Source of the DNA: a virus
Taxonomy: Duplodnaviria > Heunggongvirae > Uroviricota > Caudoviricetes
DNA: 39,288 bases
Virus record (IMG/VR): IMGVR_UViG_2740892273_000013
Direction: 5' to 3' (one strand)
The notes under the pieces were generated by a model, which saw nothing but the letters and a program-made list of their open reading frames with translations, was not told the DNA's origin and did no database searches. Positions 1-14,695 of the stretch are shown piece by piece (positions within the stretch are counted from its first letter, which is position 1; each line of letters opens with the position of its first letter). The position numbers and the translations under genes were made by a program.

Positions 1-573
1 ATGTTTTGCGAAGAAAAAGTAGCTCAAATGGCTGCATACCTACTTCTTAAGCGAGGTGGGCGCATGGCATATCTGAAATTGATGAAGCTGCTCTATCTGT
101 CTAACCGCAAGTCGATTTTGAAGCATGGCAGGATGATCGGCGAAGATAGCCTTTACTCTATGAAATTTGGTCCAGTCATGTCGAATACGCTGAACTTGAT
201 TCGTGGTAAGGCTGAAGGTATTGGTGACTACTGGTACAACCTGATAGAGACGAACGGGCATGATGTGTTGTTGCGTTCAGATCCGAGGGAAATGGATGCA
301 GACGAGGTCTTTGATGAGTTGAGCCGTGCAGATATCCGGATTTTAGATGAAATCTATTCTCTGTATGGGCATATGAACCGATTTGATCTCGCAAACATGA
401 CGCATTTAGAAAGCGTTTGTCCAGAGTGGCACAATCCTGGCAATTCTCGTAAGCCTATAGACCTGAAAGAAATGCTGATCAGTGAGGGTAAAAGCGAGGA
501 TGAGGCTAATCGTATAATTGGCAAAATGGAAGAATCTCAGAAACTTAAGGAATTTTCTTTGCAATTATCATGA
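1..573 (+). CDS. Panacea/DUF4065-like protein (SocA/GepA-type antitoxin-like domain); may be 5' truncated by the window edge
   Basis: ORF starts at base 1; translation has a K/L-rich helix (AYLKLMKLLYLSN) and GPV motif recalled as typical of DUF4065; stop overlaps the next ORF start (ATGA at 570-573). Confidence 0.45.
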   Translation: MFCEEKVAQMAAYLLLKRGGRMAYLKLMKLLYLSNRKSILKHGRMIGEDSLYSMKFGPVMSNTLNLIRGKAEGIGDYWYNLIETNGHDVLLRSDPREMDADEVFDELSRADIRILDEIYSLYGHMNRFDLANMTHLESVCPEWHNPGNSRKPIDLKEMLISEGKSEDEANRIIGKMEESQKLKEFSLQLS

Positions 574-989
574 CGGATTATCAGCCATACAGGAAAGGAA
601 CTGTGCTTGCCCCAACTGGGCCATGCAATCATCTTCATGTGATTTGTAATGATCCTGTTTATTACCCCGTTAACGATTGTTATTGTGTTTTAGTTGTTAA
701 TATTTCTAGTATCAAGGATGGTGTCCCCCACGATCCGTCTTGCGTCTTGAATTCTGGTGATCATCGCTTTATCAAGCATCCAAGTTATGTTGTTTACGCT
801 GAAGCTATAATTTGGCGAGTGGATAACATGGTTAGAAAGCAGCGATCGGGTGAGATTTCCGTTCATGATGATATGCCAGAAGCTACATTCAATAGAATTC
901 TGGACGGTTTTGATATATCTGATGAAGTTACGCCAAAGAACCTTAAATTTAAAAATAAATATTGCGTATCATCTATTGATGATGAGTAA
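570..989 (+). CDS. Hypothetical 139-aa protein translationally coupled to the DUF4065-like gene; candidate toxin/effector partner
   Basis: ATGA start/stop overlap with upstream ORF; no family recognised from the translation. Confidence 0.4.
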   Translation: MTDYQPYRKGTVLAPTGPCNHLHVICNDPVYYPVNDCYCVLVVNISSIKDGVPHDPSCVLNSGDHRFIKHPSYVVYAEAIIWRVDNMVRKQRSGEISVHDDMPEATFNRILDGFDISDEVTPKNLKFKNKYCVSSIDDE

Positions 990-1028
990 ACAACAGGAAT
1001 TGTTTCGGTATAGCTTCTGGAGTTTTCT

Positions 1029-1202
1029 ATGGAAGATCAAAAAGCAACCAAGCCACAGGTTAAGTTCGACACAATGAAAGCATTCGCAGGTATGGGTGCT
1101 GCTGTTGAAGTTCTGATGAAGGCTGCTCCTAATGCGTTCACTCACGCTACTGTCTCTGGTAAAGAGCAGCAGGGTAAGCTTCGTCGTCGCAAAGCAGCAT
1201 GA
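1029..1202 (+). CDS. Small hypothetical protein (57 aa), last gene of the plus-strand cassette
   Basis: ATG at 1029 with GGAG upstream, in-frame stop at 1200-1202, terminator hairpin immediately downstream; below the 60-aa cut-off of the ORF track. Confidence 0.3.
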   Translation: MEDQKATKPQVKFDTMKAFAGMGAAVEVLMKAAPNAFTHATVSGKEQQGKLRRRKAA

Positions 1203-1223
1203 TCATAGCTGGTGCTTTTTGAA

Positions 1224-1250
1224 AACCCGCCTTTAGGCGGGTTTTTTCTT
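1224..1250. terminator. Bidirectional intrinsic terminator between convergent genes
   Basis: Stem AACCCGCC / GGCGGGTT with loop TTTA followed by a T-run on the plus strand; A-run precedes it, so it also reads as hairpin plus U-tract on the minus strand. Confidence 0.6.
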
Positions 1251-1531
1251 TAGTGATGTTCTTTGCCCTTCTGTTTGCCTGTTCTGACCTGTTCCCACTC
1301 GATACGTCCTTCTTCTCGTCTTTTGTCTATGTATTCCGCAAGATCCTGAATATTGATGCAACGTTTTGCTTTTTGTGATGTACCGATGCGATATGTAGGT
1401 ACAGGCAACTTACAAGCGTTTGCTTTTGCTTCTGCTGTGGCTGGACTCATACCAAAGTATTTTTGACTAACTGCTGAGAGTTCAATGTTTGGGGTATTGA
1501 ATTCAGCCATCAGTAAAAACAAGGTATTCAT
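1250..1531 (-). CDS. Small DNA-binding protein, excisionase/PrtN/AlpA-like (putative Xis)
   Basis: 93-aa ORF with GGAG 7 nt upstream of ATG at 1531; basic HTH-like translation; sits where xis is expected in the leftward operon. Confidence 0.45.
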   Translation of the reverse strand: MNTLFLLMAEFNTPNIELSAVSQKYFGMSPATAEAKANACKLPVPTYRIGTSQKAKRCINIQDLAEYIDKRREEGRIEWEQVRTGKQKGKEHH

Positions 1532-1567: not shown

Positions 1568-2350
1568 TTACTTATTCATTTCAATAATATTATTTTCTAT
1601 CATTGATTTATTTAAAACCAAAGAAGGAGCAAGATGGTTGTCTATTTTAAACAATGCATAACTTTTAAACTGTTGGTGATATCCGTAACTAATAAGGATG
1701 CTAGAAAAATCTCTTAATTCATCTTCTTTTAAAAAATTAAAATGAAATGGGTTGTCACCATTTATGAACAATGAAACATCTATTATGCAGTATTTCTCTC
1801 CGTTGTCATTTGCATAGAAAAAAATATAAGACATTCTGTTTGTTAAGACAATGCCATTAAATTTTCTTATGTCTGTAGCTATTTTGTTTTCCATGTTTGG
1901 TGCTACATATTTATTTTCAGAAATACATTTAATTTCATCTCCAGATGTCGTGATTATATAAAAATGAAACTTATCAGAAATATCTAACTTAACTACGCCA
2001 TCATTATTGTAAAGGCTGCTAAATTTTGGTGGTTCAACTTTTAAAGAATCATAGTTCTTTAAAAGAAGAGGGGAGTCAAATTTAATAACTTGTAGTATCC
2101 CTTTACCTTCAACCTCCATATTGATTGAAGATATAGCAATTGCATTATCTCTTTTATTATTCAGGATTATGGTTGATATATGCATGTCATATATTCTACT
2201 TGCATTTGCTGAATACGACACTGTCACCTTTTTTGATATTTTTTGCACGCCAAAATATATAGTGAAGGCAGCGGCAAGAATAGATAAGAATTTAATGTCA
2301 AATAAGGACCATAGCCACATTAGTTGCTCAATTGCTTCAGAGTTAATCAT
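1568..2350 (-). CDS. AT-rich accessory gene encoding a membrane-anchored protein of unknown function; start uncertain (ATG candidates at 2383, 2362, 2350; track ORF begins at an alternative TTG at 2401)
   Basis: Long minus-strand ORF in a visibly AT-rich segment; N-terminal hydrophobic helix (LMWLWSLFDIKFLSILAAAFTIYFGV); promoter-like TTGCAA-N15-TATATA just upstream on the minus strand. Confidence 0.5.
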   Translation of the reverse strand: MINSEAIEQLMWLWSLFDIKFLSILAAAFTIYFGVQKISKKVTVSYSANASRIYDMHISTIILNNKRDNAIAISSINMEVEGKGILQVIKFDSPLLLKNYDSLKVEPPKFSSLYNNDGVVKLDISDKFHFYIITTSGDEIKCISENKYVAPNMENKIATDIRKFNGIVLTNRMSYIFFYANDNGEKYCIIDVSLFINGDNPFHFNFLKEDELRDFSSILISYGYHQQFKSYALFKIDNHLAPSLVLNKSMIENNIIEMNK

Positions 2351-2538
2351 TTGCTTTACCATTATCGCTGTAATACAACACATGTGTGTATATATACGCA
2401 ATGCAATTATTTTGCAAGTGCTTCATTTACTATCAATAGCTACGTCACGTTATTGTTTAATGGTTCTTTATAGGGGCGGCAATAGTTAAAATTATCGCTT
2501 CCGTAAATGCCCCCGCAGGGGCATTTGCAGTAATGAAA

Positions 2539-7915: not shown

Positions 7916-8406
7916 TCATGAGTCTTTTGAATGAAGTTCAGAAATTCATTGAAGCCCATCCGGGGTGTACTTCCGGAGACATTGCGGATGCTTTTGCAGG
8001 TTACTCACGGCAGCGCGTTCTGCAGTCAGCAAGCAAGTTACGTCAGAGTGGGCGTGTGGCTCACCGTTATGAAGGAGATACACGCAGACATTTCCCACGC
8101 CTGACTGAGAGAGCGCAGGAGCCGGAACCACAACCAGTTCGTGAAACCAGACCTGTGCGCAATTTCTATGTCGGCACTAACGATCCCCGGGTGATTTTGT
8201 GCCTGACCCGCCAGGCGGAAGAACTGGAGTCCAGGGGCTTATACCGTCGTGCTGCAACGGTGTGGATGGCGGCATTCCGTGAAAGCCACTCCCAGCCAGA
8301 ACGAAACAATTTTCTGGCGCGTCGTGAGCGGTGCTTACGGAAAAGCAGCAAGCGCGCTGCATCGGGTGAAGAGTGGTATCTGTCAGGGAATTACGTGGGG
8401 GCTTAA
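7912..8406 (+). CDS. PerC-like transcriptional regulator with N-terminal winged-helix domain
   Basis: C-terminal EELESRGLYRRAATVWMAA...RRERCL resembles the PerC signature recalled from memory; ATGA coupling to upstream gene. Confidence 0.45.
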   Translation: MIMSLLNEVQKFIEAHPGCTSGDIADAFAGYSRQRVLQSASKLRQSGRVAHRYEGDTRRHFPRLTERAQEPEPQPVRETRPVRNFYVGTNDPRVILCLTRQAEELESRGLYRRAATVWMAAFRESHSQPERNNFLARRERCLRKSSKRAASGEEWYLSGNYVGA

Positions 8407-9059
8407 TGAGTAATAAATATTGCCAGGCGCTGGTGGAGCTGCGGAACAAACCAGCCCATGAACTGAAGGAAGTGGGCGATCAGTGGCGCACGCCGGATAA
8501 CATTTTCTGGGGAATTAACACCCTGTTTGGCCCGTTTGTTCTGGATCTGTTCACTGATGGTGATAACGCCAAATGTGCCGCTTATTACACTGCGGAAGAC
8601 AACGCGCTGGCGCATGACTGGTCTGAACGTCTTGCGGAGCTTAAAGGTGCTGCCTTTGGTAATCCCCCGTACAGCCGCGCCAGTCAGCATGAAGGGCAAT
8701 ACATCACCGGCATGCGTTACATCATGAAACATGCCAGTGCCATGCGTGATAAGGGCGGACGCTATGTTTTCCTGATCAAAGCTGCCACCAGCGAAGTGTG
8801 GTGGCCGGAAGATGCAGATCATATTGCTTTTATTCGCGGGCGTATTGGTTTTGAACTGCCTGCCTGGTTTATCCCGAAGGACGAGAAGCAGGTGCCGACA
8901 GGCGCTTTCTTCGCTGGTGCTATTGCTGTTTTCGACAAGACCTGGAAGGGACCGGCAATCAGCTACATCGGGCGCGATGAACTTGAGGCATGTGGTGAGG
9001 CGTTTCTGGCGCAGGTTCGCCAGCAGGCGGAAAAACTGGTCAGGGAGATGGCGGCATGA
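8406..9059 (+). CDS. Phage Dam-family N6-adenine DNA methyltransferase (orphan)
   Basis: NPPY motif (GNPPYS) in the translation; no adjacent restriction endonuclease gene. Confidence 0.65.
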   Translation: MSNKYCQALVELRNKPAHELKEVGDQWRTPDNIFWGINTLFGPFVLDLFTDGDNAKCAAYYTAEDNALAHDWSERLAELKGAAFGNPPYSRASQHEGQYITGMRYIMKHASAMRDKGGRYVFLIKAATSEVWWPEDADHIAFIRGRIGFELPAWFIPKDEKQVPTGAFFAGAIAVFDKTWKGPAISYIGRDELEACGEAFLAQVRQQAEKLVREMAA

Positions 9060-13642: not shown

Positions 13643-14695
13643 ATGAAAAATACTGTAAAAATAAACAGTGTTGATTTAATCAACGCTGATTGCCTGCATT
13701 TTATTCAGTCCCTGCCTGATGATTCCATTGACCTGATTGTTACCGATCCGCCTTACTTCAAGGTGAAACCCAACGGTTGGGACAATCAGTGGAAAGGGGA
13801 CGAAGATTACCTTAAGTGGCTGGACCACTGTCTGGCCCAGTTCTGGCGGGTGTTGAAACCTGCCGGAAGCCTTTACCTGTTCTGTGGGCATCGCCTGGCA
13901 TCTGATATTGAGATCATGATGCGTGAACGTTTCAACGTGCTTAACCATATCATCTGGGCGAAGCCGTCCGGACGTTGGAATGGGTGTAATAAAGAAAGTC
14001 TGCGCGCATATTTTCCTGCCACAGAGCGCGTTCTGTTTGCTGAACATTACCAGGGGCCATATCGCGGCAAAAGTGACGGCTATGCGGCAAAAGAAAGGGA
14101 ACTCAAACAGCACATAATGGCACCGCTGATATCGTATTTCAGGGATGCTCGTGCCGAACTGGGTATAACGGCAAAACAAATTGCCGAAGCCACAGGTAAG
14201 AAAAATATGGTTTCCCACTGGTTTGGTGCCAGTCAGTGGCAGTTGCCGAATGAGGCTGACTATCGGAAGTTACAGGCACTGTTTTCCCGTATAGCGGCAG
14301 AGAAGTTTCAGGAACAACAACTGGAACAACCACACCACCAGCTGGTGGCATCTTATGATTCACTGAATCGTAAATATTCTGAATTGCTGGATGAGTTTAA
14401 ATCTCTCCGGCGCTATTTCTCCGTATCAGTCTCCGTGCCTTATACCGATGTCTGGATGCATAAACCCGTTCAGTTCTACCCGGGGAAACATCCGTGTGAG
14501 AAACCGGCGGATATGCTCAGGCAAATAATCAATGCCAGTAGTCGACCAGGTGATCTGGTTGCTGATTTTTTTATGGGATCCGGTTCCACAATAAAAGCAG
14601 CAATGGCGCTGGGGCGTCGGGCCTTAGGTGTTGAGCTTGAGTCAGAGCGGTTTAATCAGACAGTGAAAGAGATAAACGAGCTGGTGGGGAAATAA
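13643..14695 (+). CDS. DNA methyltransferase, N6-adenine/N4-cytosine type with motif order IV then I (orphan)
   Basis: DPPY near the N-terminus and FxGxG (FFMGSGST) near the C-terminus; no adjacent endonuclease. Confidence 0.7.

Follow-up and report, generated by a model that had tools for sequence, protein, structure and literature searches.

A probable T6-class PanA-PanT toxin-antitoxin module in a swappable slot of an Escherichia coli prophage

The first two genes of the window (the whole stretch of 39,288 nucleotides of Caudoviricetes DNA analysed here, IMG/VR record IMGVR_UViG_2740892273_000013) are probably a type II toxin-antitoxin pair, PanA-PanT, of the T6 class described in the literature, with ORF1 as the antitoxin (PanA) and ORF2 as the toxin (PanT). 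This assignment is based on the domain identity of ORF1, the fold of ORF2, homology to T6 toxins, the conserved pairing of the two genes and the boundaries of the cassette that carries them. That the toxin is toxic and inhibits translation, and that the antitoxin binds and neutralises it, is ascribed to the pair by analogy with a homologue from the literature. The features of the locus are compiled in Table 1; the ORF coordinates, the plus-strand orientation, the four-nucleotide overlap and the terminator are all present as a preliminary description of this DNA had reported them.

Table 1. Features at the left end of the window and their assignment
Feature	Coordinates	Strand	Description
panA (ORF1)	1..573	+	190 aa, full length; predicted antitoxin, Panacea domain
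panT (ORF2)	570..989	+	139 aa; putative toxin of the published T6 cluster
ATGA start/stop overlap	570..573	+	ORF2 ATG 570-572, ORF1 TGA 571-573; read from the sequence
ORF3	1029..1202	+	57 aa; phrog_2741, E 8e-36; prophage backbone
Intrinsic terminator	1221..1250	+	11-bp stem with 6 G-C pairs, 4-nt loop, T-run; backbone
xis	1250-1531	minus	excisionase, PrtN family; convergent with ORF3
PanAT cassette, portion within the window	1..1015	+	boundary from blastn against the alternative allele

Both ORF1 and ORF2 are real genes and not chance ORFs, since dN is low relative to dS and both are under strong purifying selection. Compared with the Pluralibacter copy, dN is 0.084 and dS 2.7 for ORF1, and dN is 0.089 with saturated dS for ORF2; in the comparison with phage Lys8385Vzw, ORF1 has a dN/dS of 0.12 and ORF2 shows no non-synonymous changes at all. 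The terminator is located between ORF3 and xis and ends the rightward transcript.

ORF1 had been suspected to be a Panacea/DUF4065 protein, and the Pfam search bore this out: PF13274 (SocA_Panacea) matches residues 27-137 with an E value of 1.8e-18 and 67.9 bits (gathering cut-off, 25.7 bits). The same domain is present in all 120 ORF1 homologues among the matches listed. The preliminary description had also considered that ORF1 might be truncated, with its true partner upstream. This can be ruled out, as the RefSeq entry (WP_000458583.1, "Panacea domain-containing protein", 190 aa) starts at base 1 as well, the homologues are of similar length (183-192 aa) and share the N-terminus MF.EEKVAQ, and extension in the 5' direction reveals 253 bp of intergenic DNA followed by the dusA attachment site (dusA' attL). 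The AlphaFold2 model of PanA (pLDDT 93.1) possesses, beyond the Panacea core, a conserved loop E-W-x-D-P-x-G-S-S-x-P-I (residues 142-153) and two C-terminal helices (155-161 and 166-189); neither a helix-turn-helix (HTH) nor any other N-terminal domain is present. A Foldseek comparison of this model with the PDB gave no meaningful neighbour.

The two genes belong together. A panA homologue lies directly 5' of the ORF2 homologue and on the same strand in 47 of 49 loci, the other two being cut by contig ends, and in this respect the two-gene toxin-antitoxin architecture proposed earlier for the pair holds. The distance between panA and panT ranges from -4 to +62 nt. The ATGA overlap, which 27 of 44 homologous loci share, indicates that the translation of the two genes is coupled. 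Furthermore, the pairwise identities of PanA and PanT are correlated (r = 0.89). No conserved third gene accompanies them: the 76 nearest neighbours fall into 79 Pfam families, each with no more than two occurrences.

ORF2 has no match in Pfam, NCBIfam or PADLOC. The earlier reading as a possibly novel toxin is nevertheless ruled out by homology to the T6 toxins, a cluster with an experimentally validated member. Cluster T6 was described by Kurata et al. (2022, PNAS) as a group of PanT toxins that are MazF/PemK-like according to HHpred (PMC8832971). Its validated representative is the pair from Pseudomonas moraviensis (PanA WP_083354365.1, PanT WP_083201923.1): this PanT is toxic and specifically inhibits the incorporation of 35S-Met but not DNA synthesis, and PanA neutralises it and is pulled down with it (PMC8832971).

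Two lines of sequence evidence show that ORF2 is a homologue of the published T6 toxins and link it indirectly to the P. moraviensis PanT. One is cluster membership. Homologues of ORF2 with 49-56% identity are encoded in Pantoea septica LMG 5345, Chimaeribacter coloradensis 2016-Iso4 and Salinivibrio socompensis S35, and in Dataset S1 each of these strains (C. coloradensis as "Yersiniaceae bacterium 2016Iso4") occurs once, under T6 (PMC8832971). The antitoxin-toxin gaps that we computed for the three strains (-4, -1 and +1) are the same as those tabulated there. The other line is a close Pseudomonas relative, PanA P0414, which is 43% identical to ORF1 (E 4e-46). Its 90% cluster includes WP_092267218.1, the P. 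reinekei PanA that the published list places under T6, and its N-terminus, MIFSEQKVAQ, is that reported for the validated P. moraviensis PanA (PMC8832971). The gene 3' of it, with a 1-nt overlap, encodes a product 37% identical to ORF2 (E 2e-30), and hhalign of this Pseudomonas T6-type toxin against the ORF2 family profile gave 99.95%. The organisation agrees as well: the antitoxin gene comes first and overlaps the toxin gene (-4 in the window), as in the T6 table, where the order is A|T and the gap mostly -4 or -1 (PMC8832971); the antitoxin consists of a Panacea domain only, without an N-terminal domain; and the toxin is about 130-140 aa long, lacks Pfam/CDD matches and has a predicted MazF/PemK-like fold. 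The E. coli copy differs in belonging to a distinct Enterobacterales sub-branch with the additional motif H-L-H-V-I-C-N-D-P (H23 and C26 are conserved only there) and in being prophage-borne, whereas the validated P. moraviensis pair is scored "NotPhage" (PMC8832971). It is absent from the available part of the published dataset. Clustering at 50% identity divides the T6 PanT family, for which Pfam has no model, into at least 3043 clusters. In our literature search, neither a paper on the E. coli pair nor later work on the biochemistry of T6 toxins came up.

RefSeq/PGAP places the start of ORF2 at GTG 603 (128 aa). However, the N-terminal motif M-x-x-Y-x-P-Y-R-K-G-T is kept in 35 homologues, and ATG 570, with its 4-nt overlap, is therefore the preferred start. 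The high-confidence structure model of PanT resembles MazF/Kid by two methods, and the protein is thus modelled as having a MazF/Kid/CcdB-type fold with an extra C-terminal helix (residues 122-131) that MazF, Kid (PemK) and EndoA do not have. The putative MazF link comes only from this fold comparison, as the tests at the sequence level were all negative. Identity to MazF, Kid and EndoA is only 8-17%; PF02452 (PemK_toxin) does not match ORF2 at E <= 1 in Pfam; phmmer and hmmsearch of PDB sequences, run with the single ORF2 protein and two family profiles, found no MazF among the matches; and hhalign of the family profiles gave no signal of kinship with MazF or Kid when each of these was used as a single sequence. 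Against a six-sequence MazF profile (with EndoA and S. aureus MazF among its rows, Kid identical to 1m1f and E. coli MazF confirmed over residues 9-96) the PanT family profile reached a probability of 0.4%.

The conserved residues differ as well. The catalytic pair of MazF is an Arg that opens strand 2 and a Thr/Ser that closes strand 3 (R29 and T52 in E. coli). In the PanT family, H21, L22, D55, C58, G63, H65, F67, S72, Y76, G113 and S117 are invariant or near-invariant, and position 47 is Ser or Thr. Judged by the register of secondary structure only, His21 falls near the beginning of strand 19-25, whose counterpart Ser/Thr47 ends strand 37-47; these two residues may be the positional equivalents of the MazF Arg and Thr. 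As the invariant residues (His21, Asp55, Cys58, His65, Ser72 and Tyr76) differ from the Arg/Thr pair of MazF, RNase chemistry is uncertain for PanT. In addition, its partner is a Panacea protein, whereas the MazF-type toxins are paired with MazE, Kis or PemI antitoxins.

The Panacea domain also links the pair to SocAB of Caulobacter, a type VI toxin-antitoxin system whose antitoxin SocA is the founding Panacea protein. The resemblance is confined to that domain: the NCBIfam SocA equivalog NF047745 scores 13.5 bits on ORF1 (cut-off, 190), and ORF2, with its predicted MazF-like fold, is unrelated to SocB. SocA is a ClpXP adaptor. The PanAs studied so far, in contrast, bind their toxins directly and neutralise them (PMC8832971).

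The pair is carried by a self-contained piece of accessory cargo of about 1.2 kb. In a blastn comparison of the PanAT allele with an alternative allele, homology ends at window position -193 and returns at 1016. The left end of the cassette falls outside the window, 192 bp 5' of base 1, and the cassette has its own upstream region there. At the same site the alternative allele carries a single unrelated gene for a hypothetical protein of 177 aa; the terminator is kept in it. The slot is bounded by the dusA attachment site on one side and by the excisionase end of a lambdoid E. coli prophage on the other, and the PanAT cargo has a GC content of 38-44%. Of 5426 complete E. coli genomes, 208 (~4%) contain PanAT, as do two phage genomes, SKA5 and Lys8385Vzw. 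ORF3 was found in 562 of the 5426 genomes, about 354 of them without PanAT, and in mEp460 the 57-aa ORF is likewise present with PanAT absent. The three-ORF cassette with its own terminator, as first described, has to be redrawn accordingly: its right boundary is at 1015/1016, and both the 57-aa ORF and the terminator are part of the backbone. ORF3 is probably co-transcribed with whichever cargo sits 5' of it.

If the pair works like its T6 homologue, PanA would be made first and the translation of panT would be coupled to it through the ATGA overlap. PanA would neutralise PanT by direct protein-protein binding, for which the stand-alone Panacea domain, the C-terminal helices or both may be used. 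Free PanT, with its MazF-like fold, would block translation and so arrest growth, an endoribonuclease activity being the likeliest means. Such a module could serve in abortive infection or in defence against superinfection, or it could stabilise the prophage.

A primarily anti-phage function (abortive infection or superinfection exclusion), with the Panacea domain sensing a cue from an incoming phage and releasing or activating the toxin, so that the population of lysogens and with it the prophage would be protected, is compatible with this mechanism, and we regard it as possible, if only tentatively. It fits the occurrence of the cassette in SKA5 and Lys8385Vzw and its location in a variable cargo slot next to a temperate phage's attachment site; besides, a retron-type reverse transcriptase (PADLOC RT_VI, E 7e-73) is encoded ~700 bp away from the Pseudomonas homologue, and Ernits et al. 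(2023) hypothesised Panacea sensing and tied toxin-antitoxin networks to defence systems (PMC10440598). However, PADLOC-DB v2.0 contains no family matching ORF1, ORF2 or ORF3 at E <= 1 or the Pseudomonas T6-type toxin at E <= 0.01, the neighbours of panAT in ~40 genomes are mostly housekeeping or miscellaneous genes with no enrichment of defence islands, and the literature search gave no phage-protection data for any T6 PanAT. A bolder proposal, which we consider unlikely, is that T6 PanT uses a MazF-shaped scaffold for different chemistry and that Panacea acts as a superinfection sensor freeing the toxin, which would make the pair an unrecognised abortive-infection system in about 4% of E. 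coli. His21, Asp55, Cys58 and His65 (with Ser72 and Tyr76) could then make up a metal site, or an active site that relies on His, with a new substrate. It is somewhat doubtful that the pair is an addiction module which stabilises the prophage by post-segregational killing, or by arrest, of cells that lose or excise it and has no part in defence. Type II toxin-antitoxin systems on mobile elements classically play this role (reviewed in PMC8832971), and the cassette adjoins attL and xis and would therefore leave with the phage on excision, yet many related prophages keep the site without the module (backbone in 562 genomes versus PanAT in 208).

The remaining alternatives question the nature of the pair itself. 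ORF2 might be non-toxic in E. coli, the two genes being a conserved phage accessory unit with some other, harmless function in which the Panacea partner is no antitoxin. Indeed, some predicted PanA pairs proved non-toxic when assayed; at least one such entry, the phage-borne pair of cluster T1 from E. coli MOD1, is given as "not Toxic" (PMC8832971), and ten NetFlax candidates showed no toxicity (PMC10440598). A prediction is therefore no guarantee of toxicity. Nevertheless, a member of the T6 cluster itself is toxic and neutralised in experiments (PMC8832971), and the strict pairing, the conserved 4-nt coupling and the purifying selection on both genes make a harmless ORF2 quite improbable. 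That ORF2 is a CcdB-like gyrase poison which blocks replication, rather than a MazF-like RNase, is very improbable: the model matches CcdB less well than MazF, the better structural matches all being MazF or Kid, and the homologous validated T6 toxin hits protein synthesis and not DNA synthesis (PMC8832971). Hardly credible is a single system of all three plus-strand ORFs in which the 57-aa ORF would regulate the pair or be its third member. The ORFs share the strand, short gaps (39 nt between ORF2 and ORF3) and a single terminator; ORF3 and the terminator, however, lie beyond the cassette boundary and occur without PanAT in the E. coli genomes counted above and in mEp460, and PanAT loci of other taxa have no conserved downstream gene. 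The T6-class PanA-PanT module remains the preferred reading.

The pair is an ordinary member of a catalogued toxin-antitoxin family that combines a Panacea antitoxin with a toxin predicted to be MazF-shaped. Taken alone, this has limited weight: a "hypothetical protein" that roughly 4% of complete E. coli genomes encode, as do at least two temperate phages, is now placed in a validated toxin-antitoxin family, and the RefSeq start codon of panT is corrected. The wider value lies in the toxins, a very large family without a Pfam model whose invariant His/Asp/Cys/His residues are unlike the catalytic residues of MazF. Furthermore, with PanAT defence and Panacea sensing left as an open question by Ernits et al. 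(2023; PMC10440598), the slot that separates the dusA attachment site from xis, a site of cargo swapping, offers a convenient natural test bed for both.

The left end of this lambdoid prophage, which is inserted at dusA, carries three plus-strand ORFs followed by a hairpin terminator, all of which lie where the preliminary description had placed them. Over its first 25 kb, the part covered by the comparison, the window shows no difference from the chromosome of E. coli A14 (NZ_CP028760.1), where the match begins at position 336412. The DNA directly 5' of base 1 is intergenic over 253 bp and preceded by a 5' dusA fragment, the attL remnant; therefore, ORF1 is not truncated, as had been considered possible. 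Furthermore, RefSeq also starts the protein (WP_000458583.1, 190 aa) at base 1, and its N-terminus is common to homologues of 183-192 aa. In the circular genome of phage Lys8385Vzw, the integrase gene is located upstream on the opposite strand.

Features of the prophage and of compared genome regions (L052, L054, L056); other coordinates are those of the window
Feature	Coordinates	Strand	Remarks
ORF1 (panA), 190 aa	1-573	+	
ORF2 (panT), 139 aa	570-989	+	
ORF3, 57 aa	1029-1202	+	
Hairpin terminator	1221-1250		11-bp stem, 6 G-C pairs, 4-nt loop, T-run
Excisionase (xis), PrtN family	1250-1531	-	Convergent with plus-strand ORFs and terminator
AT-rich ORF	1568-2401	-	GC ~28% (nearby 42-50%); directly downstream of xis, early-left operon
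Two DNA methyltransferases	8373-9059, 13643-14695	+	RefSeq annotation of identical A14 region
Alternative allele, 177-aa protein (WP_000956557.1 / mEp460 gp23)	L054 2695-3497, L052 2284-2817		Slot = window -192 to 1015
Retron-type reverse transcriptase (PADLOC RT_VI, E 7e-73)	L056 4174-5211 (P. fluorescens CP025542)		~700 bp downstream of PanAT homologue

The assignment of ORF1 to the Panacea domain was confirmed by a profile search with Pfam SocA_Panacea (PF13274), which matched residues 27-137 with 67.9 bits (E 1.8e-18), above the gathering score of 25.7. ORF1 shares this domain with SocA but falls below the SocA equivalog cut-off (NF047745, 13.5 bits against 190), and its identity as SocA was rejected. 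In the AlphaFold2 model (48 homologues as input, pLDDT 93.1), the Panacea core is joined by a conserved loop, E-W-x-D-P-x-G-S-S-x-P-I, at residues 142-153 and by two C-terminal helices (155-161 and 166-189); a helix-turn-helix or any other N-terminal domain is absent. As Foldseek found no fold neighbour of this model among solved structures (best E-value 1.9), the searched PDB copy appears to contain no experimentally solved Panacea fold.

For ORF2, RefSeq (PGAP) gives a GTG start at 603 (CDS 603-989, 128 aa, WP_014640052.1), which drops 11 family-conserved residues. The N-terminal motif M-x-x-Y-x-P-Y-R-K-G-T recurs in homologues of Enterobacterales, Vibrio and Shewanella, 35 in all, and the GenBank record of Lys8385Vzw starts the gene at ATG 570. 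Judged from the sequences, ATG 570, with its 4-nt ATGA overlap (ORF2 ATG, 570-572; ORF1 TGA, 571-573), is the better start call. The protein has no match in Pfam, NCBIfam or PADLOC, and matches only PHROG 19071 (function not assigned). With the AlphaFold2 model (pLDDT 92.8, pTM 0.86), the best 39 Foldseek matches were all MazF or MazF-type endoribonucleases (probability 0.97-1.00, target-normalised TM 0.54-0.66). Two methods, Foldseek among them, agree on a MazF-type fold; MazF kinship was not detected at the sequence level. By its fold, PanT may be an RNase.

An exhaustive HMMER search retrieved 3043 clusters at 50% identity (E <= 1e-3; 1345 at E <= 1e-10), a large toxin family for which neither Pfam nor NCBIfam holds a model. 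In 124 representatives (25-43% identity to ORF2), His21, Leu22, Asp55, Cys58, Gly63, His65, Phe67, Ser72, Tyr76, Gly113 and Ser117 are invariant or nearly so, and Ser or Thr occupies position 47. Conservation of His23 and Cys26 is confined to the Enterobacterales-Vibrio branch. MazF possesses a catalytic Arg at the start of strand 2 and a Thr at the end of strand 3; by secondary-structure register alone, His21 would sit at the place of the Arg and Ser47 at that of the Thr. Since His, Asp, Cys and His are classical zinc ligands, PanT may also contain a metal site.

The two genes travel together. When one genome was scanned for each species, 49 loci with ORF2 relatives emerged, and in 47 of them an ORF1 homologue (28-87% identity) is located directly upstream on the same strand, in agreement with the proposed two-gene architecture; the remaining two loci are cut at that point by contig ends. 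The ATGA overlap is kept in 27 of the 44 complete pairs. Pairwise identities of ORF1 and ORF2 correlate across 41 pairs (r = 0.89), as expected of a co-inherited unit, though alone this is no proof of interaction. No conserved third gene was found among the 76 nearest flanking ORFs (79 different Pfam families matched, each at most twice). Both genes are under strong purifying selection: dN against the Pluralibacter copy is 0.084 for ORF1 (dS 2.7) and 0.089 for ORF2 (dS saturated), and against Lys8385Vzw ORF1 has a dN/dS of 0.12 and ORF2 no amino-acid changes.

The preliminary description had considered a novel toxin, whereas ORF2 ties to toxin cluster T6 of Kurata et al. 2022 (PMC8832971). T6 toxins have no CDD hit and are EndoA/PemK/MazF-like by HHpred (PMC8832971); ORF2 likewise lacks a database domain match yet is MazF-like in fold. 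The 49 loci include Pantoea septica LMG 5345, Chimaeribacter coloradensis 2016-Iso4 (named 'Yersiniaceae bacterium 2016Iso4' in PMC8832971) and Salinivibrio socompensis S35, each of which has one entry, assigned to T6, in the available portion of Dataset S1 (PMC8832971); the antitoxin-toxin gaps computed here (-4, -1 and +1) are the same as the values in that portion. Furthermore, the ORF1 search retrieved Pseudomonas PanA proteins starting with MIFSEQKVAQ, the N-terminus reported for the validated P. moraviensis PanA (PMC8832971). One of these Pseudomonas proteins, P0414 (43% identity to ORF1, E 4e-46), has in its 90% cluster the P. reinekei PanA WP_092267218.1, listed under T6 in the same portion. 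In P. fluorescens CP025542, P0414 is followed, with a one-base overlap, by a gene for a 133-aa protein with 37% identity to ORF2 (125 ungapped residues, E 2e-30; hhalign against the ORF2 family profile, 99.95%). These two independent lines place ORF2, as a predicted toxin, with T6, the step to the P. moraviensis toxin resting on published clustering. The P. moraviensis pair (PanT WP_083201923.1, PanA WP_083354365.1) is the validated one: PanT is toxic in E. coli, is neutralised by its own PanA, co-purifies with it and specifically inhibits protein synthesis (PMC8832971).

By homology to this pair, free PanT would most likely block translation and PanA would neutralise it by direct binding; translational coupling would ensure that the antitoxin is made together with the toxin. 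Ernits et al. 2023 (PMC10440598) show two modes of neutralisation, either of which may apply to this pair: a Panacea domain on its own can bind the toxin directly, and other PanAs neutralise through additional elements at their termini.

The third ORF, proposed as a component, proved to lie outside the module. Of 5426 complete E. coli genomes, 208 contain the PanAT segment (1-1000) and 562 the ORF3-terminator segment, so that ~354 carry the backbone without PanAT. A single 177-aa hypothetical gene, unrelated to PanAT and without a Pfam or PADLOC match, occupies the slot in mEp460 and in numerous O157 and poultry strains; it was present in all three backbone examples examined (two E. coli strains and mEp460). 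In the alignment, the two alleles are homologous up to 193 bp 5' of base 1 and again from base 1016 on, before ORF3; the swappable cassette is therefore ~1.2 kb long (window -192 to 1015; GC 38-44%) and includes its own upstream region, and ORF3 and the terminator are prophage backbone. A weak sigma-70-like site (TTGACC-17-TAAACT, 154-126 bp 5' of base 1) is no better than chance.

The AT-rich ORF (in RefSeq 1568-2350, 260 aa, WP_047654657.1) matches phrog_14996 (function not assigned) and has no significant Pfam and no PADLOC hit; as exonuclease and DUF551 genes take its place in related prophages, it looks like cargo in a second slot. The methyltransferases are labelled phage N-6-adenine methyltransferase and 'DNA-methyltransferase'. 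Just right of the prophage in A14, outside the window and directly beyond the tail-fibre end, a reverse-transcriptase gene is followed by a SLATT-domain gene (region L053, 43459-44989).

Its place in a prophage cargo slot, its presence in phages SKA5 and Lys8385Vzw and the retron-type reverse transcriptase near the Pseudomonas homologue make phage defence a possible role of PanAT. However, PADLOC does not match its proteins, in other genomes it is flanked mostly by unrelated housekeeping genes, and a literature search did not find phage-protection data for T6; stabilisation of the prophage by addiction would be a no less conventional explanation.

What stands of the preliminary description is thus the toxin-antitoxin module, whereas the novel toxin, the truncation and the third component fall away: PanAT is a new, predicted pair of the known T6 kind, validated in another member. 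What keeps the pair of interest is its toxin family, which is very large, lacks a Pfam model and has a chemistry still to be characterised, and the natural allelic swap at the PanAT slot offers a clean setting for testing a role in defence.
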